64,000 nucleotides of DNA from NCBI GenBank assembly GCA_041662625.1, contig JBAZSB010000001.1, positions 118,467 to 182,466 on the forward strand. The letters are read 5' to 3'. Made by a program: the position numbers and the translations under genes. This document shows positions 3,915 to 42,457 of the stretch, in pieces; position 1 is the stretch's first letter, and the number at the start of each line of letters is the position of its first letter. The notes beneath the pieces were generated by a model. It saw nothing but the letters and a program-made list of their open reading frames with translations, was not told where the DNA came from and ran no database searches. Source of the DNA: Patescibacteria group bacterium (GTDB lineage Bacteria > Patescibacteriota > Patescibacteriia > Buchananbacterales > UBA6539).

Positions 3915-4931
3915 ATGAAAGAATTTTGGAAAAAAAACAAAAAGTCAGTAATAATTTTATTTTCTCTCTTTTTAATAATTGGCCTTTGGCTTTTTTTATT
4001 TATCCTTAATTTTAACTCAGGTAAAACTGTTTACGGTGTGACTTTCAGCGAAAAGTATGCTTTAGATTTAGGCCTAGATTGGCAAAAGACTTATTTAGCG
4101 ATTCTGGATGATCTAAAAGTTAGCAATTTAAGGTTAGTTGCTTATTGGGATGAAATTGAAGCTAGGCAAGATGTCTTTAATTTTACTGATTTAGACTGGC
4201 AGTTGCAGCAGGCGCAGGCTAGAAATATCAAAGTACTTTTAGTCGTCGGCCGCCGGACGCCGCGCTGGCCTGAATGTCATGATCCGACCTGGCTTTCACC
4301 TTTAGCGCCGCTGGCCATTGAGCAACAACAGCTGGAACTTATTAAAGCCGTTATTGATCGCTACAAAGATAATCCAGCGATTTATGCTTGGCAGGTAGAA
4401 AATGAGCCGTTTTTGGCGGTTTTTGGCAAATGTCCTTTATTGGATAAACAGTTTTTGAAAAAAGAAATTAGTTTAGTTAAATCATTAGACCAAAAACCGA
4501 TTGTCATTACTGACAGTGGTGAACTGGGTTGGTGGCAGCAGGCGGCCTCGTTGGGTGATATCTTGGGTAGTACGATGTACCGGATTGTTTGGAACAAAAA
4601 TTTAGGCTTTTGGGATTACTTTTTTATCCCCCCGGCATTTTATCATTATAAAGCTGAATTGACGAAGTTTTTTCATCCCAATTTAAAAAAAGTCATAATT
4701 ACTGAATTGCAGATGGAACCCTGGACGTTTGATCGGGATATGACTGATTTGACTTGGGATGAGCAGGAGCAATCTTTTGACTTGAAGCGTTTTCAGAATA
4801 ATATTATTTATGTCCAAAAAACTGGTTTTTCCGAAGTCTATTTATGGGGAGTAGAGTACTGGTATTGGCTGATTGAGCAAGGCCATCCCGAAATTTGGCA
4901 GCAGGCCAAGACGCTTTGGCAAGTTAAATAA
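3915..4931 (+). CDS. Membrane-anchored glycoside-hydrolase-like protein (TIM-barrel, GH5-like NEP motif)
   Basis: N-terminal TM helix; YAWQVENEPF motif; 338 aa. Confidence 0.45.
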   Translation: MKEFWKKNKKSVIILFSLFLIIGLWLFLFILNFNSGKTVYGVTFSEKYALDLGLDWQKTYLAILDDLKVSNLRLVAYWDEIEARQDVFNFTDLDWQLQQAQARNIKVLLVVGRRTPRWPECHDPTWLSPLAPLAIEQQQLELIKAVIDRYKDNPAIYAWQVENEPFLAVFGKCPLLDKQFLKKEISLVKSLDQKPIVITDSGELGWWQQAASLGDILGSTMYRIVWNKNLGFWDYFFIPPAFYHYKAELTKFFHPNLKKVIITELQMEPWTFDRDMTDLTWDEQEQSFDLKRFQNNIIYVQKTGFSEVYLWGVEYWYWLIEQGHPEIWQQAKTLWQVK

Positions 4932-4990
4932 GAAATTAAGAAAATAAAAAATTAAAACAATTAATTTCTTATTTTTTTAATTTTGTGTCA
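4932..4990 (+). terminator. AT-only hairpin (aagaaattaa...ttaatttctt) + T-run; terminator-like repeat also present at 9361-9425
   Basis: Inverted repeat aagaaattaa/ttaatttctt followed by attttttta. Confidence 0.4.
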
Positions 4991-8952: not shown

Positions 8953-9360
8953 GTGGATTTTTTTGACTCCCTAGTAATTCACCTTATGAAGATTTATTTG
9001 CCTTTTGAGTTTCAAATCAATTTAAGGATTTTTTTTCAGCGTGCAGGTTATACGGAGTTCAATGATCCCAATACCGGCAAAAGCAGTTATACTAAAAGAT
9101 TAAGTCATGATTATTATCCTCGGTTTCACTTATATGTTGAAACCGATAAAGATAACCGGAAATTTTTCAATTTACACTTAGACCAAAAAAAACCATCTTA
9201 TGCCGGTTCTTCCGCTCATAATGCCGAATATGATAGCCAAATTGTGATTCAGGAAGCTGAACGATTAAAGGGGCTGATAAAAAACCAGCAGGATAATGAA
9301 AAGCAGCAGCAAAAGCCAGTAGCCGAAAATAGAGGGTTTTGGAGTAAATTGTTTCATTAA
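8953..9360 (+). CDS. Hypothetical protein (135 aa)
   Basis: ORF only. Confidence 0.35.
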   Translation: MDFFDSLVIHLMKIYLPFEFQINLRIFFQRAGYTEFNDPNTGKSSYTKRLSHDYYPRFHLYVETDKDNRKFFNLHLDQKKPSYAGSSAHNAEYDSQIVIQEAERLKGLIKNQQDNEKQQQKPVAENRGFWSKLFH

Positions 9361-9425
9361 AATAAGAAATTGAAAAATTAAGAAAATAAAAAATTAAGGC
9401 CATTATTTTCTTAATTTCTTACTTT
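9361..9425 (+). terminator. AT-only hairpin terminator-like repeat (second copy of the 4932-4990 element)
   Basis: aagaaattgaaaaattaagaaaataaaaaattaa...cttaatttcttactttttta. Confidence 0.4.
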
Positions 9426-9441
9426 TTTATTTCTTTATTCC

Positions 9442-19135: not shown

Positions 19136-20383
19136 ATGCTAGACATTAATAAAATTCGTAACGAAAAAGAAGCAGTCAAAAAAGCGCTTTTGAAAAGAAT
19201 TAGCGAGGCTGATTTTGATTTGGATGCAATTATTAAAATTGATGATTCTAGGCGTCAATTATTGGCTGAGGTTGAAGCTTTGAAAGCTGAAAGGAATAAA
19301 TTTTCCAAGACTAAGCCCAGCCCCGATATTATCGCCAAAATGAAAGCAACTGGTGAAAAGATCAAAGAACTTGATGAACAAGTTAAGGCGACTGAAACCG
19401 AACTGACTGAACGGCTTTCTGCTTTGCCTAATATCCCGGCCGATGATGTTTTGCCTGGTGGTAAAGAAAATAACAAAGTGATCAAAACTTTTGGCAAAAA
19501 GCCCCAGTTTAAATTCGAACCCAAAGATCATTATGATTTGGCCACAAGTCTTGGAATTATTGATTATGAACGGGCGGTTAAAATGTCAGGCAATGGCTTT
19601 TGGATTTACAAGGGGGCCGGAGCAATTTTAGAATGGGCGATTTTAAGCTATTTTATTAAATTCCATCAGGAAAATAATTATACTTTTATGATCCCGCCGT
19701 TTTTGCTGACTGAGCAGTCTGCTTATACTTCTGGACATTTGCCCAAATTCCGTGATGATTTATTCTGGACCCAGGATAAGCAATGCTTGGATGCCACAGC
19801 CGAGATGATGCTAGGGAATTACCATCGCGATGAAATTTTAAACGAAGAGGAACTACCTTTGAAATACGCCGCTTACTCAGCCTGCTTTCGGCGCGAAGCC
19901 GGATCTTACCGCAAAGAAGAGCGGGGGATGATCCGCGGCCACCAGTTTAATAAAATTGAAATGTTCCATTATGCCAAGCCGGCCCAGTCTTGGGATTGTT
20001 TTGCCGAATTAGTGAGCAATGCCGAAAAATTAGTGGAGGGCTTGGGACTTCATTATCAATCAGTCCAGTTGGCAGCTGCTGATGCTTCCGCGGCGATGGC
20101 AAAAACCGTGGATGTTGAAGTCTGGCTGCCCAGTATGAATACTTATAAAGAGGTTAGTAGTGTGTCTAATGCTTTAGACTACCAGGCTAGGCGGGGTAAC
20201 GTTCGATTTAAAAACAAGGCAGGTGGTAAAAACGATTTTGTTCACACTTTGAATGCTTCGGGTTTAGCCACTAGCCGGCTTTTGCCGGCAATTCTGGAGC
20301 AGTTCCAGAATAAAGACGGCAGTGTTGAAGTGCCAAAGGTTTTACAGAAATTCTGTGGTTTTAAGAAAATTGAAAAGAAATAA
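19136..20383 (+). CDS. serS: Seryl-tRNA synthetase
   Basis: Coiled-coil N-arm + class II core; 415 aa. Confidence 0.9.
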   Translation: MLDINKIRNEKEAVKKALLKRISEADFDLDAIIKIDDSRRQLLAEVEALKAERNKFSKTKPSPDIIAKMKATGEKIKELDEQVKATETELTERLSALPNIPADDVLPGGKENNKVIKTFGKKPQFKFEPKDHYDLATSLGIIDYERAVKMSGNGFWIYKGAGAILEWAILSYFIKFHQENNYTFMIPPFLLTEQSAYTSGHLPKFRDDLFWTQDKQCLDATAEMMLGNYHRDEILNEEELPLKYAAYSACFRREAGSYRKEERGMIRGHQFNKIEMFHYAKPAQSWDCFAELVSNAEKLVEGLGLHYQSVQLAAADASAAMAKTVDVEVWLPSMNTYKEVSSVSNALDYQARRGNVRFKNKAGGKNDFVHTLNASGLATSRLLPAILEQFQNKDGSVEVPKVLQKFCGFKKIEKK

Positions 20384-20423
20384 GGCAAAGTAAAAACCAC
20401 CCGCGACTTTGACAATTGTCCTT
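20384..20423. repeat. Conserved 40-bp motif (copy 1): aaggcaaagtaaaaaccacccgcgactttgacaattgtcc; on the - strand it is the 3' flank of the small gene 20499-20705
   Basis: Second copy at 20852-20890 with compensatory change in stem caaagt/actttg vs caaagt/attttg. Confidence 0.55.
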
Positions 20424-20498
20424 TTGTTGCTTTGGACATTGCTTCCAGTCGTCTAGGTGGTTTTGGGGGGCGCGGTGCGGGCCGGGTCGGGATAGAGG

Positions 20499-20705
20499 TC
20501 AGAACCTCTCAATCCCGTCGGTCTGGACTCGGAAGAGTCCGTAACCGAAGGTCCCGATCGTGCCGGCGACCAACAGCAGCATGGCGCCGATGACGGGAAT
20601 CGTTCCCAGAGTGACCTCCGAGATCTTGTTCACCGTTTCGGTGCTGCCGGCGATGCCAGTAATGGTTGAAAGAACCAACGCTGCGAGAAACATGTACTTG
20701 ATCAT
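20499..20705 (-). CDS. Small hydrophobic membrane protein (68 aa) in a GC-rich islet
   Basis: SD aggagagag; TM core; TTGACA-17-TATCAT promoter upstream. Confidence 0.5.
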   Translation of the reverse strand: MIKYMFLAALVLSTITGIAGSTETVNKISEVTLGTIPVIGAMLLLVAGTIGTFGYGLFRVQTDGIERF

Positions 20706-20762
20706 GGTGACTCTCTCCTCTAGTTCTCTAGCATTTGCTAGATCCTCAGTTTGAATAATATA

Positions 20763-20791
20763 ATGATAACATATTTAAAGAAATTTGTCAA
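20763..20791 (-). promoter_or_regulatory. Sigma70-type promoter TTGACA-N17-TATCAT for the small gene at 20705
   Basis: -35 (rc of 20786-91) and -10 (rc of 20763-68); paralogous promoter at 21417-21445. Confidence 0.6.
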
Positions 20792-20851
20792 TAGTAAATT
20801 GATAAAAATAGCTAAATTTAGTCAAATTATAGTTTAAACAAATCGAAAATA

Positions 20852-20890
20852 AGGCAAAGTGAAAACCGCCTGCGATTTTGACAGTATCCC
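20852..20890. repeat. Conserved 40-bp motif (copy 2): aaggcaaagtgaaaaccgcctgcgattttgacagtatcc
   Basis: See 20384-20423. Confidence 0.55.
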
Positions 20891-20975
20891 GAAGGACTCT
20901 ATCAGAATCGAGGCGGTTCCTCGTGTGTTGGGTGGACTCGGACGCCGAGGCTTGGCGACTGGCGTCCTACGTCAG

Positions 20976-21122
20976 TTACTTCTGCTCAGCGTTTTGCCGA
21001 GCTTTTTCGTCGGCCGCTTCCATCAGACTGCCGACTCTGGTAAAGACTCCGCCTATCATGGCAATGATTGTCTCACCAGTCGTGGTTGCAGCCTTTGCCG
21101 GGTTACTACTCTGCTCACTCAT
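20976..21122 (-). CDS. Small protein (48 aa), second gene of a two-gene mini-operon
   Basis: SD ggaagga 6 nt upstream of ATG; 42 nt after the upstream small gene; GC-rich. Confidence 0.35.
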   Translation of the reverse strand: MSEQSSNPAKAATTTGETIIAMIGGVFTRVGSLMEAADEKARQNAEQK

Positions 21123-21164
21123 GGATTTCCTTCCGTTTTCAGGCTCGTGTGCCTGACTGCTTTG

Positions 21165-21350
21165 TCAGCTTCTGACTCGGCTGACCCTTACCACTACGAC
21201 ACATAGCAGCATCGCAGCGCCCCCGTATAGCAGCGCCGCAAAAACTGTCATTGATGTGGGCAGCGCCATACTGCCGGTTATGCCGCCGACAGCGATGCCG
21301 GCCAGCAACAGCACGATGGCGACTGCACCCAAAAAAAGGTTCAATTTCAT
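21165..21350 (-). CDS. Small hydrophobic membrane protein (61 aa), possible paralogue of the 20499-20705 product
   Basis: SD gagggacag; TM helices; TTGACA-17-TATCAT promoter. Confidence 0.5.
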   Translation of the reverse strand: MKLNLFLGAVAIVLLLAGIAVGGITGSMALPTSMTVFAALLYGGAAMLLCVVVVRVSRVRS

Positions 21351-21416
21351 CTGTCCCTCGCTTTCTTTTTCCTTCCGGTTTATATCACTCTTGTTACCAT
21401 TCCGAATTGATATATA

Positions 21417-21445
21417 ATGATACCATTTTTTAGATAAACTGTCAA
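21417..21445 (-). promoter_or_regulatory. Sigma70-type promoter TTGACA-N17-TATCAT (paralogue of 20763-20791)
   Basis: The roughly 70-bp upstream regions of both small genes are clearly homologous. Confidence 0.6.
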
Positions 21446-21488
21446 TGGAAATTTAGGAAAATAGCTAAAATAAGCAATAAATATTATC

Positions 21489-21565
21489 CAAATCTACGAA
21501 TTTATGCCAATCTACAAATTATAGGGATATTCGTAGATTCGGATAGATTTGTAGATTGGTATAAT
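21489..21565 (+). promoter_or_regulatory. Interleaved inverted repeats (aatctacgaat/attcgtagatt and aatctacaaat/atttgtagatt) plus TGGTATAAT box immediately upstream of alr; putative operator/promoter
   Basis: Two nested inverted-repeat pairs within 75 bp; extended -10 ends 3 nt before ATG. Confidence 0.4.
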
Positions 21566-21568
21566 GTT

Positions 21569-22738
21569 ATGTATAGTTCTTGGGTTGAAATTTCCAAATC
21601 CGCTATTTCGTATAATCTTGCCCAATATCAAAGAATTGTTGGCTCGAAAGTTGCCGTCATGCCGATTGTTAAAAGTAATGCCTATGGTCATGGCATGATC
21701 CAGATTGCTAAGTTAGTCAGCGCAAAAGTCAAATGGTTAGGTGTGGTGAATTTGGGCGAAGCCTTGGCGTTACGCCAAAATAAAATTAAAAATCGAATTT
21801 TTGTTTTAAGCTATTGCCAGTCAGAGTTGTTAGAGGAGGGGATTAGGCAAAATATTGATTTGCCAGTTTATGATTTAGCCATGGCTAAGCTGATTTCCAA
21901 GAAAACAAGAAATCAAAAAATCAACCCGTTCGACTACCGCTCAGGGTTGATGGTGAGCGAAGTCGAATCCATCAAGAAAACAAAAGTGCATATTAAAATT
22001 GATACTGGTGCTTCACGGGTTGGTGTTTTACCAAAAGATGCGGTAAATTTTATCAGGCAGGTATGTCAACTACCAAATTTGAAAGTAGAAGGAATTTACA
22101 GTCATTTCGCCGCTTCTGAAGAAAATCCAAAGTATACTAAGTGGCAATTAAATAATTTCAATCAAGTTTTAGCCAATTTAAAAAAAGAAGGAATTAATAT
22201 TCCTTATAAACATTTTGCCTGCAGTGCGGCCGCTTTAGTTGAGCCAAAGTCGTATTTCAATCTAATTCGCCTTGGCTTAGGTCTTTATGGTTTGTGGCCG
22301 TCCAATTTGGCTAAAAAGATAGCAATCAAGAAATATCCATGGTTAAAATTAAAACCAGCTTTAAGTTGGAAGACTAAAATTATTCAAGTTAAAGAAATTT
22401 CCAAAGACACTAAAATTGGTTACGGCTGCACTTTTATCGCCAAGAAAAAAATGAAAATTGCAGTTTTGCCGGTTGGTTATTGGGAAGGCTATGATCGGCA
22501 CTTAAGTAATCAAGGAGAAGTGATAATCAAAAATAAAAAATGCCCAGTTATTGGGCGAGTCTGTATGAATTTAACTATGGTTGATGTCAGTTTAGTTAAA
22601 GATGTTAAAATAGGTGATGAGGTAGTCTTGCTAGGCGGGGGAGTACCAGCTGAAGAATTGGCAGAAAAGATTAGGACAATCAATTATGAAGTAGTGACGC
22701 GGATTAATCCTATCTTAGAAAGACGATATTTAAAATAA
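21569..22738 (+). CDS. alr: Alanine racemase
   Basis: PLP-lysine motif VKSNAYGHG; 389 aa. Confidence 0.9.
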   Translation: MYSSWVEISKSAISYNLAQYQRIVGSKVAVMPIVKSNAYGHGMIQIAKLVSAKVKWLGVVNLGEALALRQNKIKNRIFVLSYCQSELLEEGIRQNIDLPVYDLAMAKLISKKTRNQKINPFDYRSGLMVSEVESIKKTKVHIKIDTGASRVGVLPKDAVNFIRQVCQLPNLKVEGIYSHFAASEENPKYTKWQLNNFNQVLANLKKEGINIPYKHFACSAAALVEPKSYFNLIRLGLGLYGLWPSNLAKKIAIKKYPWLKLKPALSWKTKIIQVKEISKDTKIGYGCTFIAKKKMKIAVLPVGYWEGYDRHLSNQGEVIIKNKKCPVIGRVCMNLTMVDVSLVKDVKIGDEVVLLGGGVPAEELAEKIRTINYEVVTRINPILERRYLK

Positions 22739-22740
22739 AA

Positions 22741-22800
22741 AAATTGGGCTCCCGGTCGGCACAGCAGTTTTTCCTGAACTCTTTGTGAGTTCGACTGTGT
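22741..22800 (-). terminator. Strong Rho-independent terminator for a minus-strand transcript (ggctcccggccgacacacag...ctgtgccgaccgggagcc + TTTTTT)
   Basis: About 19-bp GC stem followed on the - strand by aattttttt. Confidence 0.65.
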
Positions 22801-23435
22801 GTCGGCCGGGAGCCGTCCAATTAGGGCGATGCGCTCGCTCATCAGCGTCTTGCCAGCCTTGGGCTGACAACGCCGAAATACGGGCGTGCCCGAACACGGA
22901 GATGCGGCTTAGCCAGTCGCGGGCGATCCCGGGTTTAGGCCTGGGCGCCGTGCAATCAGCGGGGTTTAGTCCCCGCAGCACTATGTTGGCAAATGCCGCT
23001 CTCCTATCTTAGGAACACTACCTCGTAGTGGGCAAGGACCCGTAGGTCCTCGCGCAGTGTCCCTTGTCCGCGCGCCACCTCGCGCTAAACCCGCTCAGTT
23101 TGCCCGAAGGCCGACGCCGCTGAGATTGATTGCGCGACTGAACGGGTACTACCGATTGGTCAACCAGCCAAGGTCCCCAGCCTTGCGGTCGACCAGAAGA
23201 TCAATGACTTAACCAAGAAAGCCATATTCTCCCTTCCTGTTTGTCGGTTGCGACGCTACGGAGCGTCTGGTTAAAACCCAAAGTAGAAAGTCTTGGTTAC
23301 GAACTTTCTACCCGTGGAATCGGGCTCCATACACCGGCCCAAACGGTGCGGTAGCCCCCATACAACGGGAATTGACGCAACAACATCGTTCGCCCTCCAT
23401 GAGCGCCATAACTTCTGACGCTTGTTGAGGATGTG
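22741..23435 (-). ncRNA. About 700-nt GC-rich (about 58%) hairpin-dense RNA candidate of unknown class, bounded by a promoter and an intrinsic terminator
   Basis: No credible ORF (only terminator-spanning or overlapping ORFs); many hairpins with UUCG/UACG tetraloops (gcc-uucg-ggc, aggacc-uacg-ggucc); promoter at 23438-23466. Confidence 0.4.
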
Positions 23436-23437
23436 GA

Positions 23438-23466
23438 TACGTTAACATATATCTAAAAATTTGTCA
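23438..23466 (-). promoter_or_regulatory. Minus-strand promoter TTGACA-N17-TAACGT driving the GC-rich RNA locus
   Basis: TTGACA = rc of 23461-66; 17-nt spacer. Confidence 0.45.
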
Positions 23467-23483
23467 ATGATAATTGAATAAAT

Positions 23484-24641
23484 ATGTCTAAGATTAGCAA
23501 AAAAAATAAGATTAAGGTCGGTGTAATTTTTGGTGGTCGCTCAGGCGAGCACGAAGTTTCTATTGTTTCCGCTCAGTCCGTAATGAAAGCTTTGGATCGG
23601 AACAAATATGAGGTTATTCCGATTGGCGTGACTAAGGAAGGCAAATGGATTGCCGGGCCCCAGGCAGTGCAATTTCTAAAAGAAGGGTTGAAAAAATTGC
23701 CGTTCAAATCAGTTTTAACGCCTGACCCAACCGAAAAACATCTGGTCAAAGTCAAGGAAAAAGGTTTGGTGCCGCTCAAGTCTCAAGGGTCGTCAATCAC
23801 TAACCTTGACGTAGTGTTTCCGTTAATCCACGGGACTTATGGCGAAGACGGCAAGCTGCAAGGACTTTTGGAACTGGCCAACATTGCTTATATTGGGGCC
23901 GGCGTTTTAGGTTCAGCTTTAGGCATGGATAAAATTGTCCAGAAACAATTGTTTGCTGAGGTGGGGTTGGCCATAACTAAATATACTTGGTTTTTAAGTC
24001 AGGATTGGCCTAGGAAAAGAAAAAATATTTTAAGCCAGCTGGAAAAAGAACTGAAATACCCGATGTTTACCAAGCCGGCCAATACCGGTTCCAGTGTTGG
24101 TGTGGGTAAATGCCATAATCAGAAAGAATTAATTTTGGGCATTGGTGATGCTAGCCAATATGATCGCAAGGTGATTGTTGAGCAGGGGATTAATAACATT
24201 TCTGAGATTGAAGTGGCGGTTTTAGGTAATGATAATCCCAAAGCTTCAGTGCCCGGCGAAATTATTGCTAGTAATGAATTTTATGATTATGATGCCAAAT
24301 ATGTTGATGGCAAATCACAGGCAATAATTCCGGCTAAACTGCCCCAAGCAGTGGTTAAGAAAATTCAAAGAATGGCAGTTGAGGCTTTTAAAGTTTTAGA
24401 TTTATCCGGTATGGCCCGGGTTGATTTTTTGGTCACCAAAGGCCGCTATCAAATTTATCTGAATGAAGTCAACACTATTCCCGGCTTTACTTCAATTTCC
24501 ATGTATCCAAAGCTCTGGCAGGCTTCCGGTCTTTCGTATTCTGATTTGCTGGGTGAATTGATTAAATTGGCAATTGAGCGTTTTAAAGAAAAAAATAAGC
24601 TGAAAACTTCTTATCAGCCGAAGCAGGATTGGTATAAATAA
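23484..24641 (+). CDS. ddl: D-alanine--D-alanine ligase
   Basis: KVGVIFGGRSGEHEVS N-terminus, ATP-grasp; 385 aa. Confidence 0.9.
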   Translation: MSKISKKNKIKVGVIFGGRSGEHEVSIVSAQSVMKALDRNKYEVIPIGVTKEGKWIAGPQAVQFLKEGLKKLPFKSVLTPDPTEKHLVKVKEKGLVPLKSQGSSITNLDVVFPLIHGTYGEDGKLQGLLELANIAYIGAGVLGSALGMDKIVQKQLFAEVGLAITKYTWFLSQDWPRKRKNILSQLEKELKYPMFTKPANTGSSVGVGKCHNQKELILGIGDASQYDRKVIVEQGINNISEIEVAVLGNDNPKASVPGEIIASNEFYDYDAKYVDGKSQAIIPAKLPQAVVKKIQRMAVEAFKVLDLSGMARVDFLVTKGRYQIYLNEVNTIPGFTSISMYPKLWQASGLSYSDLLGELIKLAIERFKEKNKLKTSYQPKQDWYK

Positions 24642-24645
24642 TTTT

Positions 24646-25509
24646 GTGAAACGCAAACGAGATTACCAAAGAAAAAATTTTAGGAACCCTTTTTTTAATA
24701 AGAAGGGGAAAACACATAAACGCCGGCCTTGGCTGGTTTTAATTTTATTTTTAGTTATTTTTTTTATCAGCTCATACTTTCTAAATAATATTAGCCAATT
24801 ACAGATTAAAACGGTCCAAATTAAAGGTAATGAGCATATTAGTCAGCAGGAAATTGAAGGCTTGGTCTTTAAACAGGCCCATGAGAGGCGTCTTTTCTTT
24901 TTCAGCCAGAATAACCTGATTTTTTTTAGCAAACGCGAATTGAAGAAAAAATTGAACGAAAATTACTTTTTGGAGCAGCTGAAAATCCATAAAAAATATC
25001 CTGGTACTTTAATTATTGAAATTAAAGAGGAAATTTCATCTTTAATTTGGTCGAGTGGCGGTATCCAGTATTACTTGGATTTAAAAGGAGTGGCCTTAAG
25101 AAAAGCCACGACTGATGACTTGATTATTGAGCCTGGAGCCGGGGAGATGAAACTTATTAGACCGCAAGTCAGTTCTGGTCAATATCCATTGATTTATGAT
25201 CAAAGTAATACTCCTGTTACTATTGGTCAGCCAATTATTACCGAAATTTTAGTTAATTTTATTATTAATTTAACTGAGCAAGTTAAACAGAGAGCTGAGT
25301 TTATTTTGGCTCACTACCAAATTCCTGACCCCAGTTCAACGGAAATTACTTTAGTTACTAATGAAGGTTTGAAAATATATTTTAGATTAACTGATCCATT
25401 AGATCAACAACTGGAAACCTTATTTTCGGTTTTAAACACAGAAGTTAAAGATTGGCATAGATTAGAATATATTGATTTACGTTTTGGCGGAAAAGTTTTT
25501 TGGAAATAA
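24646..25509 (+). CDS. ftsQ: Cell-division protein FtsQ/DivIB-like (TM + POTRA)
   Basis: Basic N-terminus, one TM, POTRA-like region; classic ddl-ftsQ synteny. Confidence 0.55.
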   Translation: MKRKRDYQRKNFRNPFFNKKGKTHKRRPWLVLILFLVIFFISSYFLNNISQLQIKTVQIKGNEHISQQEIEGLVFKQAHERRLFFFSQNNLIFFSKRELKKKLNENYFLEQLKIHKKYPGTLIIEIKEEISSLIWSSGGIQYYLDLKGVALRKATTDDLIIEPGAGEMKLIRPQVSSGQYPLIYDQSNTPVTIGQPIITEILVNFIINLTEQVKQRAEFILAHYQIPDPSSTEITLVTNEGLKIYFRLTDPLDQQLETLFSVLNTEVKDWHRLEYIDLRFGGKVFWK

Positions 25510-25651
25510 TATAAATGCCTCCTCATTCCCACTAATTTTATTCCTAGTATCTATGCGTCGTAAAATATTTTAGAGTGGGGAAGTCATCTTTAGCGGGGAA
25601 GAGGCAATTAGTTTAACCAATTAAGATCAATTTGGACATCTAAGTACCCTT

Positions 25652-25726
25652 AAAGCCCTGAAAGTGCATTTTGTCATCCTGAACTTGATTTAGGATCTCA
25701 TCAGAATCGCACCTTCAGGGCTTTTA
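25652..25726 (+). terminator. Long hairpin (gccctgaaagtgc...gcaccttcagggc) + TTTT after ftsQ
   Basis: 12-bp stem with one mismatch, T-run. Confidence 0.45.
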
Positions 25727-25800
25727 GTAATTTTTGAATATAAATAGCTAAATATAAATAGCTATAGGTGGTTTATATGAGTTGCTAAATCTGCGCTATG

Positions 25801-25945
25801 TTAAGTGACTCATTGAGATACTCAAATGGTCTTATAATGAGTCGCTTAACCAGATTTTACGACACCGTGTCGGTGTCATAAAATCTGGTCACCTTAAGCG
25901 ACTCATAAGGACAACAAAATGGTCATACTATGAGTCGCTTAAGGT
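25801..25945. repeat. About 145-bp nested palindromic element: three consecutive hairpins (gactcat..atgagtc; 17-bp central ccagattttacgacaccg|cggtgtcataaaatctgg; gactcat..atgagtc) linked by gcttaa/ttaagc palindromes
   Basis: Direct reading of the sequence; capable of alternative cruciform or three-way pairing. Confidence 0.7.
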
Positions 25946-26057
25946 ATATTGTGCGACCCTAAACTATCCAACAAATAAGGCAAAATGACTCTCCCCTAGG
26001 AATAAGATGTAATAGATTGAGTTTATTTCCGTCTTAATTATATGGCGCCAAGATGAT

Positions 26058-26086
26058 TCTTTACTGGAAAAAGAATTTGACGGAAG
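26058..26086 (+). promoter_or_regulatory. Promoter TTGACG-N17-TAAGAT
   Basis: Hexamers with 17-nt spacer; drives the GC-rich 26.1-26.48 kb transcript. Confidence 0.5.
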
Positions 26087-26264
26087 AATCTTTTTGCCCT
26101 AAGATATGAAGTCGCCCTTTGAAACCACACCCATTGCCCTCCCCTAGCTGTTGGTGTTAGCCGCCGCTAGCTAAAGGAGGGCAATTGCGAGAATGTGACT
26201 TGCACGGCCAGTGTCGTCAGCTGGTTGTTAGCCTCTCCGATTCTAATCAATAAGCCCCAATCAT

Positions 26265-26438
26265 ATGATCAGGGCACTTTCGGGGGCGCTAACACTAGCT
26301 TTGGGCATTATCGTGCTAAAGCTTCTGTTACCTGAGATTGCTGTGGGTTTGATTGACCTTATCGTCAAAATCATCCACATCATCAATGTTGCAGTCGATC
26401 AGACTTCAGCTAATCTCAATATCCCCATCTCGCACTAA
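26265..26438 (+). CDS. Candidate small hydrophobic peptide (57 aa), no obvious SD
   Basis: ATG ORF MIRALSGALTLALGIIVLKLLLPEIAVGLIDL...; promoter upstream, terminator downstream. Confidence 0.3.
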   Translation: MIRALSGALTLALGIIVLKLLLPEIAVGLIDLIVKIIHIINVAVDQTSANLNIPISH

Positions 26439-26440
26439 TC

Positions 26441-26480
26441 AAAAAGGCTCAAGGATTTCTCCCTGAGCCTTTTGTCTTTA
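26441..26480 (+). terminator. Rho-independent terminator (ggctcaagg...cctgagcc + TTTTGTCTTT), also placed to terminate the convergent sdpI-like gene
   Basis: Stem + T-run. Confidence 0.55.
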
Positions 26481-26494
26481 TTGTTTTGTTTTCG

Positions 26495-27163
26495 CTAGAT
26501 ATTTTGATTTCTATTTTTTCGGTAAAGCAGATACGAATAAACCATTGGCACCAAAGAGACAATAGCGATGCCAGCGACAAAAAGCCACCAAAATATGGCT
26601 GGCGGTAGAATTGCCCCAAAAATCATAAATAAACCCATGATCATAAATAATTTACCGCCCAAGCGATGAGTTTTATTCCAAACTTCCTCGCTAGACAAAG
26701 TCCAGGGCGTGCGGATACCCATAAACCAGTTCGATTTAATTTTTCCCATGTAATTGCCTAAAACAACAAATAAAATGCCAATTGCTGGCGGGATGACCAT
26801 GGTTACCGGTAACTCATAGCCTAAACCGGCTAAGCCCACATAAAAATAGATTGCTGTCATTACTGCAACCATCAGGCCTTTAAAAACGTGATAGACTTTA
26901 GCAAACTCAGCATAGCGGTCTTTTTTTGGGTCAAGATAAGGAAAAACCAAAAACAGCAGATACATTCCTAAGTTTAAGCCGGGAAAGAAAAAAGCGGCAA
27001 AAGTTTTGCCTGACCAGCCGTCGATTTCCCCTTTGTAGTTCCAATGGGTTGGGACTTTATCAGGAAAATTGGCATAGAAATAGAAGCTGGCCAAAACACT
27101 TAAAATAATTAAAACAATTGGGATAATTTCGGTTTTAAAGGTTGGTTTGATTGGGTTAGCCAT
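26495..27163 (-). CDS. SdpI/YhfL-family membrane protein (DUF1648 + SdpI immunity/signalling domain)
   Basis: KSNWFMGIRTPWTLSSEEVWNKTH signature, 6 TM; paired with an ArsR repressor. Confidence 0.7.
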   Translation of the reverse strand: MANPIKPTFKTEIIPIVLIILSVLASFYFYANFPDKVPTHWNYKGEIDGWSGKTFAAFFFPGLNLGMYLLFLVFPYLDPKKDRYAEFAKVYHVFKGLMVAVMTAIYFYVGLAGLGYELPVTMVIPPAIGILFVVLGNYMGKIKSNWFMGIRTPWTLSSEEVWNKTHRLGGKLFMIMGLFMIFGAILPPAIFWWLFVAGIAIVSLVPMVYSYLLYRKNRNQNI

Positions 27164-27168
27164 ATTTT

Positions 27169-27438
27169 TTATTTAGATTTATTAAAAAAATTATAAATTT
27201 CTTCAGCAATTTCTTCAAAAACGCTCAAATTTAAAGAATAAATAATCTGTTGTCCCCTTCTTTGGGTGGAAACTAAATCGGCCCCTTTTAAGATAGTTAA
27301 ATGGTGGGAAAGCGATGGTAAGGTAATATCAAAATTTATGGCGATTTCATTAACCGGCAGATCCTTTTTTTTAAGCAATTGGAGAATTTTGCGGCGGGTC
27401 GGATCAGATAAGGCAAAAAATGTATTATTTAAAGTCAT
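27169..27438 (-). CDS. ArsR/SmtB-family HTH repressor (SdpR-like)
   Basis: LSDPTRRKILQLL...VNEIA...SLSHHL wHTH; 89 aa; 5 nt upstream of the sdpI-like gene. Confidence 0.8.
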   Translation of the reverse strand: MTLNNTFFALSDPTRRKILQLLKKKDLPVNEIAINFDITLPSLSHHLTILKGADLVSTQRRGQQIIYSLNLSVFEEIAEEIYNFFNKSK

Positions 27439-27482
27439 ATTCCCCTACTTTGTGATCCCTTGTAGCAATTGGGATAAGTTTA

Positions 27483-27507
27483 GATATTTAGACAACTATC
27501 TAAATAT
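27483..27507. promoter_or_regulatory. 12-1-12 inverted repeat ATATTTAGACAA|CTATCTAAATAT, putative ArsR/SdpR operator about 45 bp upstream of the repressor gene
   Basis: 10/12 symmetric positions. Confidence 0.5.
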
Positions 27508-27597
27508 TATCATAAAAAAATAGTCTGTCAAGACCTTATTTTTAAAAAATGTGGATATCTTATTTGTCTAAAATGGAATAATTAGTTAATATAATTA

Positions 27598-27830
27598 TGT
27601 GGACATCCCCCCCAGGATGCGAAACGTTAGGCCCCGCTAGGGTTCCCTCCGGGGAACCCCGGCGAAAACAAACTCGCACCTAGTGCGAACAGTGCGAGAG
27701 ATCCACATAGATCTTTGCCGGGCTTTGCGCCCAACAACCGCGGCTGCTACGGCGGCCAACGACCCTCCCCAGAGTGGACAGGTAGAGTAAGAGAGTTTTG
27801 CTCAGCCTGTCCCTCATTTTTTTTATTTTT
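27598..27830 (+). ncRNA. GC-rich (about 60%) small structured RNA candidate with its own terminator
   Basis: Hairpins gggttcc-ctcc-ggaaccc, ctcgcac...gtgcgag, closing tgtgga/tccaca; TATAAT at 27590; terminator ggacagg..cctgtcc + T8 at 27775-27826. Confidence 0.3.
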
Positions 27831-28230
27831 AGAGCTGGCCCCAATACATTATCTTTAAGTAAGATAAAACCAAAAAAACCGTCACTGCGGCCAAAACATC
27901 TTTTAGAGTGGGAACTTGTTTAAAGAAAAAAGGTAAAATTATAATCAGAACTGGGAGAAAATAAGTTAAAAGGTCATGTTTTAAGGCCTGGTACCAGTTT
28001 AATTCGATACTAATTTTAGAATCAGTTTTGTCTTTGGTTTTTTTGATTTGCTCCTGGTCGCGGCCAAAAACTAAAATCCCTCCAATTGTGAAGACAATTG
28101 TTGGGATAAGTGAAATTAGAATATCAACCAGTGATTTAGATTTATAGAGATAGTTAAAATAGACAATGGCAGTGGCAACAGTCAGAAACATGATGACAAT
28201 GCTGCTTATTTTTTGCTGTGAAATTTTCAT
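27829..28230 (-). CDS. Hypothetical membrane protein (133 aa)
   Basis: 4 predicted TM segments. Confidence 0.4.
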   Translation of the reverse strand: MKISQQKISSIVIMFLTVATAIVYFNYLYKSKSLVDILISLIPTIVFTIGGILVFGRDQEQIKKTKDKTDSKISIELNWYQALKHDLLTYFLPVLIIILPFFFKQVPTLKDVLAAVTVFLVLSYLKIMYWGQL

Positions 28231-34129: not shown

Positions 34130-35515
34130 ATGCAAAGAAATAAGAAATTAAGAAATCAAAAAATTAAGAAATTAAAGCTATACTCTGTTTTATTTTCTTA
34201 TTTTCTTATTTTCTTATTTTTTTATCCGAGCGTAGCCTTGGCTGAGTATTATTTTAATCCTCATTTTATTTTGACTGATGAAGAAATGACTGACTCGTTG
34301 GCTCTGACTTTGAACGAGGTCCAAAAGTTTTTAGAAGCAAAAGGCAGCGGTTTGGCTAATTTAGTTTCATCAGATTATAATGGCGTTAATAAAAAAGCTT
34401 CAGAGATTATTTGGCAGGCTGCTATTGAAAGCAAAATTAGCCCTAAAGTTTTGCTGGTGACTTTGCAAAAAGAACAAAGTCTAGTGGAAGAACCATTCCC
34501 AACTCAAACTCAATTAGATCGGGCAATGGGCTATCGTTGTCCTGACAGTGGATCATGCAATCCGAGTACGCTAGATTTTGGCAAACAGGTCGACGGCGCG
34601 GCCTGGCAATTTCGCCAATACTTTGATAATCCATTCAACTGGAATTATCAAAAGGGCCAGACTTATGTAGTTGATGATTATTTAATAACTCCAGTCAATC
34701 AGGCCACGGCTTGCCTTTATAATTATACCCCTCATTACTCTGGCAACCGGCATTTTTGGCAAATTTGGCAGAGCTACTGGGGCCGCGATTACCTCGATGG
34801 TTCACTTTTAAAAGGTTATGACAGTCCGGCTGTCTGGCTTATTCAGTATGGCGGCCGAAGATTGATTACTTCCTGGGGAGTTTTGATTTCCCGCTTTGAT
34901 CCGAAGAAAATAATTACCGTTTCCCAAACCGATTTGGAAAAATATGAAATTGGCCCACCGATTAAATTTTATAACTACTCATTATTGGAAGCGCCGGACG
35001 GTAAAATTTATTTGTTAGTTGATGACCAGTTGCGTCATATTGCCAGTCTGGAAGTTTTTCGGATTATCGGTTTTAATCCCGAAGAAGTAATTGCGGTAGA
35101 GGAAGCCGATTTAGCCGGTTATAAATATGGTCCCGACATTACTACCAGTAGTGTCTACCCGACTGGAGCTTTAATTCAAAATAATAAAACTGGCGGTGTC
35201 TATTATGTTGAAGATGGCATAAAACACCCGATTTATTCTCGTGAAATTCTTGCTGCCAATTTTAAAAGCAAGGTCCTGACTGCCGTTAGCCCCGAAGAAC
35301 TAGATCAATATCAGCTGGGCCTACCGGTTAAATTTAAAGATGGTGAGTTGATTAAAGCCAGTAACGACTCAAAAATTTATGTAATTGCCGATGGCCTTCG
35401 CCATTGGATTAAATCTGAAGAAGCATTTGCCAAGTTTTCCTATAAATGGGATAATGTAATTGTCACGACGCAGCAGGCGGTTGAAATTCATCTTCTTGGT
35501 GAAGATATCGAATGA
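34130..35515 (+). CDS. Secreted protein with four degenerate repeats of a (K/D)GxIY.V.DG.(R/K)H.I.S motif
   Basis: Signal peptide after MQRNKK...; start 1 nt after the radical-SAM stop. Confidence 0.5.
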   Translation: MQRNKKLRNQKIKKLKLYSVLFSYFLIFLFFYPSVALAEYYFNPHFILTDEEMTDSLALTLNEVQKFLEAKGSGLANLVSSDYNGVNKKASEIIWQAAIESKISPKVLLVTLQKEQSLVEEPFPTQTQLDRAMGYRCPDSGSCNPSTLDFGKQVDGAAWQFRQYFDNPFNWNYQKGQTYVVDDYLITPVNQATACLYNYTPHYSGNRHFWQIWQSYWGRDYLDGSLLKGYDSPAVWLIQYGGRRLITSWGVLISRFDPKKIITVSQTDLEKYEIGPPIKFYNYSLLEAPDGKIYLLVDDQLRHIASLEVFRIIGFNPEEVIAVEEADLAGYKYGPDITTSSVYPTGALIQNNKTGGVYYVEDGIKHPIYSREILAANFKSKVLTAVSPEELDQYQLGLPVKFKDGELIKASNDSKIYVIADGLRHWIKSEEAFAKFSYKWDNVIVTTQQAVEIHLLGEDIE

Positions 35516-36724: not shown

Positions 36725-36892
36725 CTACAAGGAACTTAGGCTATCGCCATAGATACCACTTGGCCGCCGACCAATGATCCAAGCACCGAATTCCCAGAGA
36801 AATACCCCTAGAGCGATGGCGAGAACAGCGATCGTCACGCCGGCAATAAAAAGGAATTCGGACAGAGTTAGTCTGTGATTGGTTGTTGGCAT
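36725..36892 (-). CDS. Small single-TM membrane protein (55 aa), third gene of a mini-protein operon
   Basis: MPTTNHRLTLSEFLFIAGVTIAVLAIALGVFLW...; SD gggaga; start 5 nt after the previous stop. Confidence 0.5.
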   Translation of the reverse strand: MPTTNHRLTLSEFLFIAGVTIAVLAIALGVFLWEFGAWIIGRRPSGIYGDSLSSL

Positions 36893-36896
36893 CTTT

Positions 36897-37124
36897 CTAC
36901 ATCTCCCACTTGGAAGAGCCGTGTGGCGATTGGGGTGGGTACGGGAACTCGTCACGGGCGACGTTTTCCCAGATTGAGCAAACCCGGTCAAAGAGCCACG
37001 ATAACGCCAGCCCCAGAGCCAGTACAATGCCGAAGGCTTGTCGTCTGACTAGAACTAGCAGACTCGCGCCGACGGCAAGTAGAATTATAACAATTGCCGT
37101 CCAGGTGGTAATGTCTCTTACCAT
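36897..37124 (-). CDS. Small two-TM membrane protein (75 aa), second gene of the operon
   Basis: MVRDITTWTAIVIILLAVGASLLVLV...; SD aagggagga; ATG 2 nt after the upstream stop (tga tc atg). Confidence 0.5.
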   Translation of the reverse strand: MVRDITTWTAIVIILLAVGASLLVLVRRQAFGIVLALGLALSWLFDRVCSIWENVARDEFPYPPQSPHGSSKWEM

Positions 37125-37126
37125 GA

Positions 37127-37276
37127 TCAGTCCTCCCTTATGACCAGAATGCCAAGGCCGCCAAAACAGATGGCACCTACATTCAGGCCGGCTACAATGA
37201 CTAGTACGGCTAGGTGTTTGGCTAGCCAAACTATTATTGCTGCTTGCCACAGAGCAATAAAAAGATCTCCTATCAT
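37127..37276 (-). CDS. Small hydrophobic protein (49 aa), first gene of the operon
   Basis: MIGDLFIALWQAAIIVWLAKHLAVLVIVAGL...; SD ggaggg 8 nt upstream. Confidence 0.5.
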   Translation of the reverse strand: MIGDLFIALWQAAIIVWLAKHLAVLVIVAGLNVGAICFGGLGILVIRED

Positions 37277-37344
37277 AATCAAGCCCTCCGTTGTTGTCCA
37301 CTGCAGTGAGCTTAGATAATTTATAGAAAAAAGTCAATTATAGA

Positions 37345-37385
37345 TATAGAAAAACCCGGCGGTCGCAGGGCGACGTCGGGTGTGA
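37345..37385 (-). terminator. Compound GC hairpin + TTTTT terminating the upstream mono-cistronic small gene
   Basis: cccgacgtcgccctgcgaccgccggg + ttttt on the - strand. Confidence 0.5.
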
Positions 37386-37415
37386 ATCTTCCCTCGGTTC
37401 ATCAAGGAGTTTTCC

Positions 37416-37562
37416 TCAAATTCCTTTGGGCGGAGTGTACCAGTGTTTTGGTCTCACAAAACCAATGAGCAGGTCGGACCAAGCCATCGGCGGCCATGTC
37501 AACCAAAGGTTGAACGCGACAATGGCTAACACTCCAACTATTACCGCAATGATCCACCACAT
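37416..37562 (-). CDS. Small hydrophobic protein (48 aa), mono-cistronic
   Basis: MWWIIAVIVGVLAIVAFNLWLTWPP...; SD ggaggg 8 nt upstream; TTGACT-17-TAAGAT promoter near 37700. Confidence 0.5.
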   Translation of the reverse strand: MWWIIAVIVGVLAIVAFNLWLTWPPMAWSDLLIGFVRPKHWYTPPKGI

Positions 37563-37818
37563 ATCTGTACCCTCCAAGGGTTGCCCTTTCTACTGTAGAG
37601 AATTATTCCCAACAAATAGGGTAGTTCTCCCGGAAGGATATCATCATTAGCGAATGCAAAAGCTATCTATTTTTAATCTTAAGCCTATTGGAAGAAAAAG
37701 TCAATTTATCCTCCTACCTTTTAATTATTTTATAAAAGATAACTCCATAGATTGATAAATGATTTCAATTTGATTTTAAAGTATCAAAGGTGGGAGGATT
37801 TATCCCCAAAAAGAGCTT

Positions 37819-38632: not shown

Positions 38633-39583
38633 ATGAATATGGAAGTTTCAAAGTCAAAAATTGTTTTTCTCGGCACGCCTGAGTTTGCTATGCCAATCTT
38701 GCAGGCTTTAATTGGCAATAATTATAAGCTAGCCTTAGTTATTACTCAGCCGGATAAACCAGCAGGACGTAAACAAGAATTAATTCCCCCACCGATTAAA
38801 GTTTTAGCTCAGAAAAATAATCTGGCAATTGCCCAGCCAAATAATAAAAAAGAATTAGCCGCTATCTTTGAACAGAATAAATTTGATCTGGCAGTATTAG
38901 CGGCCTATGGCATGATTATTCCTGACGAAATTTTGACCAAACCGAAGTTTGGTTTTTTAAATATTCATCCTTCGCTTTTGCCGAAGTATCGTGGCTCTTC
39001 ACCAATTCAATCAGCAATTTTGACCGGCGACAAAAAAACTGGCGTTAGCATCATTCAGCTTGCCAAAAAGATTGATGCCGGTCCGATAGTAGCCCAAGCA
39101 GAGACGGAAATTGAACCTCAAGACAATGTCGAAATACTAAGCCAGAAATTAGCGGAATTGGGTGGGCAGTTGCTAATTGAAACTATACCGGGTTATCTGA
39201 AAGGTGAGGTTAAATTACGGCCGCAAAACGAAACCGAAGCCACTTTTACTAAGATGATTGAACGCGAAGATGGCCTGATAAATTGGCAAAAAACAGCCAG
39301 TCAAATAGAACGGCAATTTCGGGCTTTTTACCCTTGGCCAGGTGTATTTACCCACTTGGCGGGCAAACGCCTTAAAATCGCAAATTTAGGCGTTTTAGAG
39401 GGTGATTTTAAGCCTAATCTAGGTCCAGGGACGGTATTTTTAGGGCCAAATCAAACCTTGGCAGTTAAATGTGGTCAGGGCGCAGTTGAACTTAAGGCGG
39501 TCCAGCTTGAAGGTAAAAAAGAACTGCTCGGCAAAGAATTTTTACGCGGGCAGAAAGAGTTGATTGGAAAGATTTTGGAATAA
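38633..39583 (+). CDS. fmt: Methionyl-tRNA formyltransferase
   Basis: N-terminal formyltransferase core + C-terminal domain; def-fmt synteny. Confidence 0.9.
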   Translation: MNMEVSKSKIVFLGTPEFAMPILQALIGNNYKLALVITQPDKPAGRKQELIPPPIKVLAQKNNLAIAQPNNKKELAAIFEQNKFDLAVLAAYGMIIPDEILTKPKFGFLNIHPSLLPKYRGSSPIQSAILTGDKKTGVSIIQLAKKIDAGPIVAQAETEIEPQDNVEILSQKLAELGGQLLIETIPGYLKGEVKLRPQNETEATFTKMIEREDGLINWQKTASQIERQFRAFYPWPGVFTHLAGKRLKIANLGVLEGDFKPNLGPGTVFLGPNQTLAVKCGQGAVELKAVQLEGKKELLGKEFLRGQKELIGKILE

Positions 39584-39584
39584 A

Positions 39585-39730
39585 TTTGAATTTCGAATTT
39601 TTAATTTTGAATCAATTTTTAATATTCGAATATTATAATATTGAATTGAAATTCGACCATTCGACTCCGCTCAGGTCGCCTCGAGCAAGCGAAGCGAGTC
39701 GAGAGGCGAAATTAAAAATTTAAAATTTTA
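39585..39730. repeat. Intergenic composite repeat, copy 2 (inverted relative to copy 1), between convergent fmt and the phosphatase gene
   Basis: rc matches 32497-32650 including the GC hairpin tcgactcgcttcgcttgctcgaggcgacctgagcggagtcga. Confidence 0.75.
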
Positions 39731-42224: not shown

Positions 42225-42457
42225 AGTAACCTCACCTTTCTTGCTTGGTTTGTACCTTTTGTTCCTTTCTGTTTGTACCCCCATTATCGCCTTGTCATAT
42301 TTAGTTAAAAAAGTCAATAATTGACCAATAAAAAATACAGCCCCAACTTCAGCTGTCTTCTCCACCGAGGGCGGAAAAAACTGCCAAAGAAGGGGCTGGG
42401 TAATGCTTACTGCAATGCCGGTTCAAACCGGTGACTCACGCGACGAGCTGTCGTGCG

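Follow-up and report, generated by a model that had tools for sequence, protein, structure and literature searches.

The question raised by this locus is what two small GC-rich units are doing between the housekeeping genes serS and alr of a Patescibacteria group bacterium, and why the ends of these units resemble each other. The window analyzed is a 64,000-nucleotide (nt) stretch of contig JBAZSB010000001.1 (positions 118,467 to 182,466). On its plus strand, serS (19136-20383) and alr (21569-22738) are separated by a 1.2-kb spacer with two GC-rich patches that are transcribable on the minus strand, opposite to both genes. Each patch (GC content 0.53-0.64 vs. 0.40 in the window) carries one unit, as an original prediction made from the sequence alone had claimed, and the open reading frames (ORFs) of 68, 61 and 48 amino acids (aa) lie where that prediction placed them (Table 1). 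The prediction regarded the units as paralogues and their shared 3' motif as a special RNA element. As we read the evidence, it is fairly probable that a duplicated, serS-convergent terminator and members of a promoter family flank unrelated, fast-evolving mini-genes, one of which is demonstrably coding, and that the two units are independent transcription units with related regulatory ends. The mechanism is ordinary and the locus fairly ordinary; the gene class is genome-wide and odd.

Related loci and contigs, designated by L-numbers, were used for comparison. The SerS protein is 70-81% identical to that of Buchananbacteria-like and other Parcubacteria metagenome-assembled genomes. The closest relative found, L085 (JGI 3300029288, Ga0265297_10003260), has a SerS that is 94% identical, and L083, a 924-nt contig with a SerS that is 87% identical, carries the sole homologue of the 68-aa protein. 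Contigs L081 and L082 are 99.9-100% identical, represent the same population and add no information. The serS and alr genes are neighbors in many relatives, with a gap of 10-30 nt in five of them (L003, L005, L006, L009 and L013), and the same serS-adjacent slot holds different small units with the same promoter type in L001, L024 and L072. Judged by gene order, units 1 and 2 are lineage-specific insertions, a status that we count as established.

The conserved 3' motif proved to be real. It is a 37-nt repeat (20378-20414 and 20847-20883) with 89% identity, located approximately 75 nt after the last stop codon in unit 1 and approximately 83 nt in unit 2. A degenerate 33-mer matched exactly twice compared with 0.00 matches expected in shuffled sequences. 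On the transcribed minus strand, the motif is the descending (3') arm and U-tract of a 55-72-nt hairpin, its second copy being the 3' arm and tail of the terminator copy T2. Four copies of this terminator are known: T1 in unit 1, T2 in unit 2 and the orthologues beside serS in L083 and L085. All four fold into long hairpins (-22 to -34 kcal/mol, z -3.5 to -5.9) that lie 35-60 nt past the last stop codon. The T1 fold has an energy of -28.8 kcal/mol (z -5.2) and a covariance model score of 102 bits, and the T2 fold an energy of -34.3 kcal/mol (z -5.9) and a score of 79.8 bits. T1 and the copies in L083 and L085 each abut the serS stop codon (20381-20383 in the window), which the T1 tail overlaps. 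A U-rich tract follows directly, the stems ending in GGUGGUUUUU, GGCGGUUUUC, GGCGGCUUUA and GGCGGUUUUC, each followed by ACUUUGCCUUAUUU. The sequence after each hairpin is UUUU(U/C/A)ACUUUGCCUUAUU, written for T1 and T2 as (U/C)ACUUUGCCUUAUUU.

The basal helix of the hairpin, 10 base pairs (bp) in length, is maintained by compensatory change. In three sequences, 30 of 30 cells were paired, with two double changes. When all four sequences were used, 39 of 40 cells were paired, with three double changes, each in a different sequence, whereas slid controls gave 37-62%. The four-sequence count used a model-guided alignment, which replaced a MAFFT/RNAalifold run that had misaligned the short L085 hairpin. 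Between T1 and T2, two of the four differences in the motif are matched in the 5' arm, which is not itself repeated (A-U to G-C and G-C to A-U), and a third converts a G·U pair to A-U. We count this covariation as established; judged by it, the hairpin is a structured RNA element under selection. To that extent, the idea of a functional RNA 3' element holds, although the design is that of an ordinary intrinsic terminator and not a non-canonical one. The combination of A-tract, GC-rich stem and U-tract between convergent genes is the design of a bidirectional intrinsic terminator, and the hairpin would thus be an intrinsic, probably bidirectional, terminator convergent with serS. On the plus strand, T1 forms the same hairpin followed by UUUUGGGG (UUUU), so its stem folds on both strands. 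T1 probably terminates both unit 1 and serS and would stop the convergent serS and mini-gene transcripts from reading into each other, while T2 would shield the unit 1 promoter from unit 2 transcription.

The search for further copies of the terminator was negative. A supposed third copy at 25975 shares only AAATAAGGCAAA (12 nt) with the motif and failed a 17-mer search with up to three mismatches, an nhmmer profile and the covariance model. There was no exact match to the motif in the 80 related loci, the covariance model found no copy beyond the known ones in the window and 31 loci and none in the 30 closest of the 80, and a first metagenome scan for the motif returned nothing. A second, looser metagenome scan gave one match, in a mitochondrial ND1-like gene, that was dismissed as chance. 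The terminator is a local element and not a dispersed repeat. After T2 there is a relic of the serS 3' end of approximately 20 nt (20831-20848 vs. 20358-20375). This serS-end-like tail indicates that T2 is a duplicate of the terminator at the serS end, which we read as having been duplicated once. The unit 2 orthologue abuts serS directly in L085, and the unit 1 orthologue does so in L083. Since L083 is the more distant of the two in SerS, the tandem arrangement was probably present in the common ancestor and unit 1 was probably lost in L085, possibly by recombination between the T repeats.

The promoters at the other end of the units are both TTGACA-N17-TATCAT, as claimed. They also have a TG extension, and they are the two best sigma-70 matches in the 19-28 kb region (11 of 12 positions). 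The upstream regions are homologous, with 76% mean column identity and, in a second alignment, 68% identity over 84 nt. However, they are not a private pair. The similarity is the property of a family that includes at least three further promoters in the window and more in the relatives, and the 68% identity between the promoter modules P1 and P2 is no closer than that of the family (55-68% among five minus-strand copies). The -35 elements of the five copies start at 20791, 21445, 23467, 56960 and 63134, and each copy precedes GC-rich sequence. A four-copy profile recovered the fifth copy (23503-23438, E 2e-6) and also matched L004, L024, L048, L020, L063, L017, L072, L006, L003 and L001. The module, of approximately 75 nt, has a GCTAA-NN-TTAGC palindrome upstream of TTGACA-N17-TGnTAT(C/A)AT. 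In P2, a palindrome-like element (GCTAAAATAAGC, 21464-21475) is followed after 18 nt by the -35 element (21445-21440) and the extended -10 element (21422-21417), with a predicted transcription start at approximately 21410. In P1, the corresponding element (GCTAAATTTAGT, 20811-20822) lies 19 nt from the -35 element (20791-20786), the -10 element is at 20768-20763 and the predicted start is at approximately 20756. P2 and the promoter of its orthologous L085 unit share 81% identity. If these putative promoters are active, each unit would have a leader of 50-60 nt with a Shine-Dalgarno-like site at its end.

The position of the palindrome was counted over 175 strong promoters in the window and a set of related loci. 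The distance from the palindrome core to the -35 element was 19-21 nt in ten cases and 28-30 nt in seven, with approximately 0.12 expected per offset. These two peaks are one helical turn apart, which suggests that the palindrome is a candidate protein-binding site centered near -61.5 or -71.5. In class I activator-dependent promoters, the dimer site is centered near -61.5 or -71.5, as for CRP. The module resembles this class in that its palindrome lies upstream of the -35 element at two offsets one helical turn apart, but its core is already near consensus, which is unusual for such promoters. Alternatively, the palindrome could be a repressor site or an UP-like element. Several other observations concern the module. 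A perfect palindrome lies between two divergent promoters in L020. In L085 (5574-8412), there is no alr between serS and ddl, and the module of the unit 2 orthologue extends over the start codon of ddl. Wherever a module adjoins ddl, the complement of its palindrome supplies the first codons of that gene (M-x-K-I-S-K); in L006, which is without the module, ddl starts with MSKNKIK. An AT-rich inverted repeat at 21480-21568 (40-nt arms, 80% complementary, four ATCTAC(G/A)AAT boxes) covers a TTGGTATAAT promoter-like site just upstream of the alr start and could be an operator.

Coding capacity is best supported for the ORF of unit 1, annotated as WC675_00660 (the other locus tag in the annotation of the 922-kb source contig is WC675_00665). 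It has GAGGAG 9 nt before the ATG, and its GC content at third codon positions (GC3) is 0.77. A k-mer search and a first HMMER search with the three peptides recovered only the query sequences themselves. The full HMMER search (1.84 billion representatives) gave one true homologue of the 68-aa protein and no more, P0009 on L083, which has 63 aa, is in the orthologous position and is 45-48% identical (E 5.6e-4). The pair shares the motifs ITGI..ST.TV and a C-terminal GIERF, and 16 of the 30 conserved residues use different codons (GGG ATT GAG AGG TTC vs. GGA ATC GAA AGA TTC). The ratio of nonsynonymous to synonymous substitution rates (dN/dS, omega) was 0.35-0.38 (approximately 0.36) with a dS of approximately 1.2, and the frame of the ORF is the only one open in both genomes, scoring 114 compared with 22-65 for the other frames. 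By these measures, the 68-aa ORF is a genuine protein-coding gene under purifying selection, although a fast-evolving one. Of the outcomes that would have counted against the original prediction, half were seen: no further motif copies turned up in the window, the 80 related loci or the two metagenome scans, but this ORF is conserved in a relative under such selection. The peptide has two hydrophobic stretches, which hydropathy makes two membrane-length helices, and the product may be a two-helix membrane protein. The AlphaFold model is a single long helix (pLDDT 80, pTM 0.33) and is uninformative. The peptides gave sub-threshold matches only (E 0.02-1), treated as noise, in Pfam, NCBIfam, PHROGs, PADLOC and PDB, and no homologues in viral contigs.

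The proposal that the two units are paralogous applies to their regulatory shells and not to their peptides. A comparison of the 68-aa and 61-aa proteins gave no BLASTP alignment, shuffle z scores of -0.3 and -0.6 and an hhalign probability of 0.4%. A short collinear DNA similarity between the units was attributed to low-complexity hydrophobic coding and rejected as evidence of paralogy. The identity between T1 and T2 exceeds that between T1 and the L083 copy, by eye on the alignment, yet the unit 1 protein and its L083 orthologue have kept 48% identity, so a diverged duplicate of unit 1 should be recognizable. Unit 2 is not recognizable in this way, and the cargo is therefore unrelated. Judged by these alignments, only the shells are homologous, the promoter shell being part of the wider family. 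Small hydrophobic ORFs elsewhere in the window are likewise not related to unit 1 or unit 2.

Coding capacity is less certain in unit 2. Its 61-aa ORF has two hydrophobic stretches, GAGGGA 5 nt before the ATG and a GC3 of 0.65. No homologue was found among 5.8 billion proteins, and the coding status of the ORF is unproven. As a positive control for tblastn, a conserved 57-aa gene (26265-26438) was readily found in the relatives. The 48-aa ORF was said to be coupled to the 61-aa ORF, but it lies 42 nt downstream with its own ribosome-binding-like, purine-rich site (GGAAGGA), an arrangement that points to co-transcription instead. Its counterpart in L085 has 50 aa and 33% aa identity (shuffle z 6.9). 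In the comparison of the window with L085, unit 2 is better conserved in its promoter, in short blocks of the leader and untranslated region (UTR) and in its terminator than in the 48-aa ORF; the block GCCAGTC...CGGCGTCCGAGTC of the 3'-UTR hairpin is among the sequences kept in the alignment. Protein-level selection on the unit 2 ORFs is unproven and they may not be translated. The hydrophilic peptides at the slot (48 aa in the window, 33 aa in L001 and 40 aa in L024) showed no convincing homology.

The unit ORFs also differ from the core genes in composition and in their putative ribosome-binding sites. Their GC3 is 0.55-0.77 compared with 0.39 ± 0.08 for the genes in the window and 0.31-0.35 for ribosomal protein genes. 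The L083 orthologue of the 68-aa ORF retains a GC3 of 0.64 despite a near-saturated dS, a value compatible with selection for GC and also with an import that was very GC-rich and is ameliorating slowly. A Shine-Dalgarno-like motif was present at none of the 38 core-gene starts inspected, including those of ribosomal protein genes, and at one of 50 long ORFs, which is located in a GC-rich island. The core genes of the relatives examined (L001, L003, L005, L006, L009 and L013) are also without it. In nearly all island ORFs, on the other hand, a GGAGG-type site lies 5-10 nt ahead of the ATG, an indication that one genome uses two classes of translation-initiation region. It is conceivable, though unlikely, that the units belong to a clade-wide, separately controlled accessory class in Buchananbacteria-like Patescibacteria, made up of compositionally alien, GC3-rich mini-genes or RNAs. 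These would share a dedicated promoter module whose phased palindrome answers to one regulator, would have distinct Shine-Dalgarno-based initiation and would sit in recombination-prone slots between housekeeping genes with fast turnover of cargo, encoding for example host-interaction or envelope peptides.

Several points weigh against the reading of terminator and promoter shells around mini-genes. The hairpins, at 55-72 nt and with internal loops, are longer than textbook terminators; they are interrupted and three-tiered, whereas a compact stem would have about 5-14 bp and a loop of 3-8 nt. A simple terminator scan missed T1 and in T2 found only a small alternative hairpin (AGGCGG/UUGCCU followed by UAUUUU). 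This alternative (RGGYGG/UUGCCU, then UAUUU) is kept in all four copies, conserved through one-sided changes only. The predicted fold pairs much of the U-tract with the A-tract, and the plus-strand U-tract is poor in T2 and in the L083 copy, so that bidirectionality is plausible for T1 only. The covariation comes from four sequences in an alignment that was fitted to the model, and promoter use and 3' ends are predictions. The approximately 190 nt that hold the 61-aa ORF are absent from L085, the closest relative. The 48-aa ORF is nearly neutral (dN 0.65, dS 0.86, omega 0.76, compared with an omega of 0.04 for serS in the same genomes), and the reverse frame is equally open there, so the frame test is not distinctive. 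Finally, approximately half of Parcubacteria 16S rRNAs lack the anti-Shine-Dalgarno motif (PMC9297842), and because of this and the lack of such sites in the core genes, the Shine-Dalgarno-like sites of the units are weaker evidence of translation.

Table 1. Positions of the features between serS and alr, with the evidence on which each is based.
Feature	Positions	Strand	Evidence
Putative terminator copy T1; hairpin 20464-20393 (AAAACCACCU...GGGUGGUUUU), then UACUUUGCCUUAUUU	20378-20464	minus	fold, covariance model, pair counts
C-rich stretch (80% GC), unit 1 3' UTR, stop codon to terminator hairpin	20465-20498	minus	sequence, composition
Unit 1 ORF, 68 aa (WC675_00660)	20499-20705	minus	orthologue, dN/dS, frame test, annotation
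Predicted promoter module P1	20758-20837	minus	promoter scan; nhmmer E 1.6e-10; palindrome search
Putative terminator copy T2; hairpin ~20920-20862 (GGAACCGCCUCGAUU...AAUCGCAGGCGGUUUU), then CACUUUGCCUUAUUU	20847-20920	minus	fold, covariance model, repeats
Unit 2 3'-UTR hairpin, GGACGCC...GGCGUCC	20935-20973	minus	fold; same hairpin in L085 fold
Unit 2 second ORF, 48 aa	20976-21122	minus	ORF list, L085 counterpart
Unit 2 first ORF, 61 aa	21165-21350	minus	ORF list, hydropathy
Predicted promoter module P2	21401-21492	minus	promoter scan; nhmmer 4-copy profile E 1.4e-16; palindrome search

The possibility was considered that the 3' motif is a special RNA element built on a 6-bp stem (CAAAGU/ACUUUG), whether for termination of a non-canonical kind or for the docking of a protein or small RNA, as the original prediction proposed. 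We regard this as highly improbable. On the minus strand, 15 of 16 cells in three copies allow the stem to form, and sequence conservation is higher in the 3' arm and tail than in the 5' arm, which upkeep of the stem alone would not need. However, the conservation of the tail is partly explained by its overlap with the stop codon and last codons of serS, and the covariation sits in a different helix, the 6-bp stem having no double compensatory change. The G-U wobble that was thought to preserve the stem in the second copy exists on the plus strand only, where the L083 copy pairs at two of six positions by inspection; on the transcribed, ORF-bearing strand, the second copy has an A·C mismatch, and the L085 copy is without the CAAAGU half altogether. 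Moreover, the 3' strand of the 10-bp helix falls within the 14-nt loop of this stem, which makes the two structures mutually exclusive, and the competing long hairpin is worth -29 to -34 kcal/mol. A rather unlikely alternative, for which there is more to be said, is that unit 2, and possibly others of its class, is mainly a non-coding or dual-function RNA gene whose ORFs are incidental in GC-rich sequence. Between the window and L085, the promoter, the blocks CCTGAAAACGGA, AGTAACCCGGCA and CGGCGTCCGAGTC and the terminator are kept, while the 48-aa ORF, with the omega given above, has 24, 17 and 24 differences by codon position and L085 can do without the 61-aa ORF. In the islands, every one of the six frames is open for 29-106 codons, and the GC-rich bodies found without an ORF in the alr-ddl spacer of the window, L003 and L005 are driven by this promoter module too. 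On the other hand, all three ORFs have a well-spaced purine-rich site and an ATG, the 61-aa ORF has a coding-like order of GC3 > GC1 > GC2 and two clean hydrophobic helices, and the 48-aa ORF has kept its start and the N-terminal SE..SNPA.A.TT in L085. In addition, there is no Rfam family match (none at the gathering score in the window, and nothing meaningful in an E-value scan of 20200-28000), and for unit 1 a purely RNA function is excluded by the dN/dS and the frame test.

Two further explanations concern what the shells carry. The small size of the peptides, their two hydrophobic helices and charged C-termini, and the strong promoters, convergence with serS, lineage specificity and fast turnover of the units are all reminiscent of type I toxin-antitoxin-like or holin-like toxic membrane peptides, with serS read-through or an antisense RNA as the antidote. 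That the units encode such toxins is nevertheless very doubtful. No convincing antisense promoter was found over either mRNA, the plus-strand sites at 20735 and 21391 firing away from the ORFs, and antisense control fits poorly with a long terminator blocking read-through from serS. Moreover, proteins of 61-68 aa with two helices exceed typical type I toxins, and there were no matches in PADLOC, PHROGs, Pfam or NCBIfam. It is also doubtful that the shells form a cassette-exchange platform, functionally integron-like, with the cargo swapped by recombination. The combination of homologous shells and unrelated cargo, the different cargo at the slot in L001, L024, L072, L083 and L085, and a second locus with a 150-nt 3' module repeated behind two unrelated ORFs would all be expected of such a platform, and the unit 2 type beside serS in L085 is consistent with deletion between the T1 and T2 repeats. 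However, ordinary homologous recombination between duplicated regulatory DNA suffices for this. The window has only two T copies, inspection of the hairpin ends (AAAACCACC and GGTGGTTTT) showed no attC-like core (GTTRRRY), and, in contrast to integron cassettes, both units come with a near-consensus promoter of their own. No recombinase or integrase turned up in the window, which was not searched for one systematically.

Other islands and repeats were observed in the window. A 700-nt island between alr and ddl (22740-23440, 62% GC) has neither a convincing ORF nor a match in Rfam, and it lies downstream of a module copy that overlaps the ddl start codon. In the same slot, non-homologous GC-rich bodies with terminators are found in L001 (12677-13576), L003 (12381-12633) and L005 (12391-12691), and none in L006; the alr-ddl islands are possibly fast-evolving non-coding RNAs. 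A 3' module shared by different cargo occurs a second time at 61664-61810 and 62269-62412 (minus strand), as a three-hairpin element of approximately 150 nt, approximately 97% identical between its copies (-65 kcal/mol, z -7), that lies directly behind two unrelated ORFs of one module-driven unit. Four tandem small hydrophobic ORFs of 48, 49, 75 and 55 aa (36725-37577, minus strand; ATGs at 37562, 37276, 37124 and 36892) lie in a GC-rich island, each with a strong GGAGG-type site; they are related neither to one another nor to the two units. GC-rich islands flanked by AT-rich core genes also occur at 27590-27830 (minus strand), 41841-42985, 56563-57477 and 59460-59921. One of these is a 200-nt ORF-poor segment that is not alignable with L085, and several have orphan ORFs of 100-175 aa with no Pfam match, one with a signal-peptide-like N-terminus. 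Near the supposed third motif copy, the spacer downstream of ftsQ has two 49-nt direct repeats (25801-25942), each an inverted repeat (TTAAGCGACTCAT...ATGAGTCGCTTAA). AT-rich repeat families occur at gene ends (4920-4990, 9355-9435, 34130-34225, 39577-39656 and 46063-46142), with AAATAAGAAATTAAGAAAAT-type units and an 80-nt repeat at 89% identity.

The locus adds one validated orphan small protein, a predicted membrane protein with one orthologue under purifying selection, and it shows clearly how compensatory change can maintain a putative terminator hairpin. It suggests that these reduced, uncultured bacteria keep a pool of fast-evolving mini-genes that are distinct in composition, ribosome-binding signals and promoters. 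If this is true, such genes would offer a way to study the regulation and translation of accessory genes in Patescibacteria, whose core genes are without Shine-Dalgarno sites, and the gain and loss of new small genes in the gaps between essential ones.

The units can also be compared with known systems. Small hydrophobic proteins such as type I toxins and membrane regulators are similar in that the products of 61-68 aa have two predicted helices and would be made from a short mono- or bicistronic mRNA with its own promoter and terminator. They differ from the families of such proteins in that no sequence, profile or structure match and no antisense partner were found. Bidirectional intrinsic terminators are reportedly the subject of work by Ju et al. 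in 2019. T1 resembles them, with its A-tract, hairpin and U-tract between serS and unit 1, its folding on both strands and a stem under selection, whereas the T hairpin is far longer and three-tiered and the plus-strand U-tract is weak in T2 and L083. Terminators of this kind between convergent genes have been described (10.1101/2022.10.23.513370). Like the genes inserted into phage genomes known as morons, the units sit between genes that are adjacent in relatives and have a predicted sigma-70 promoter, a factor-independent terminator and a deviant composition. Juhala et al. and Hendrix et al. are said to have described morons in 2000. Morons are autonomous promoter-gene-terminator units inserted between conserved genes (PMC3594210). 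Unlike morons, the units are chromosomal, in a region with serS, alr, ddl and ftsQ, they have no PHROG or viral-contig match, and their promoters belong to a host-wide module family. Except for their chromosomal site, the units fit the operational definition of a moron.

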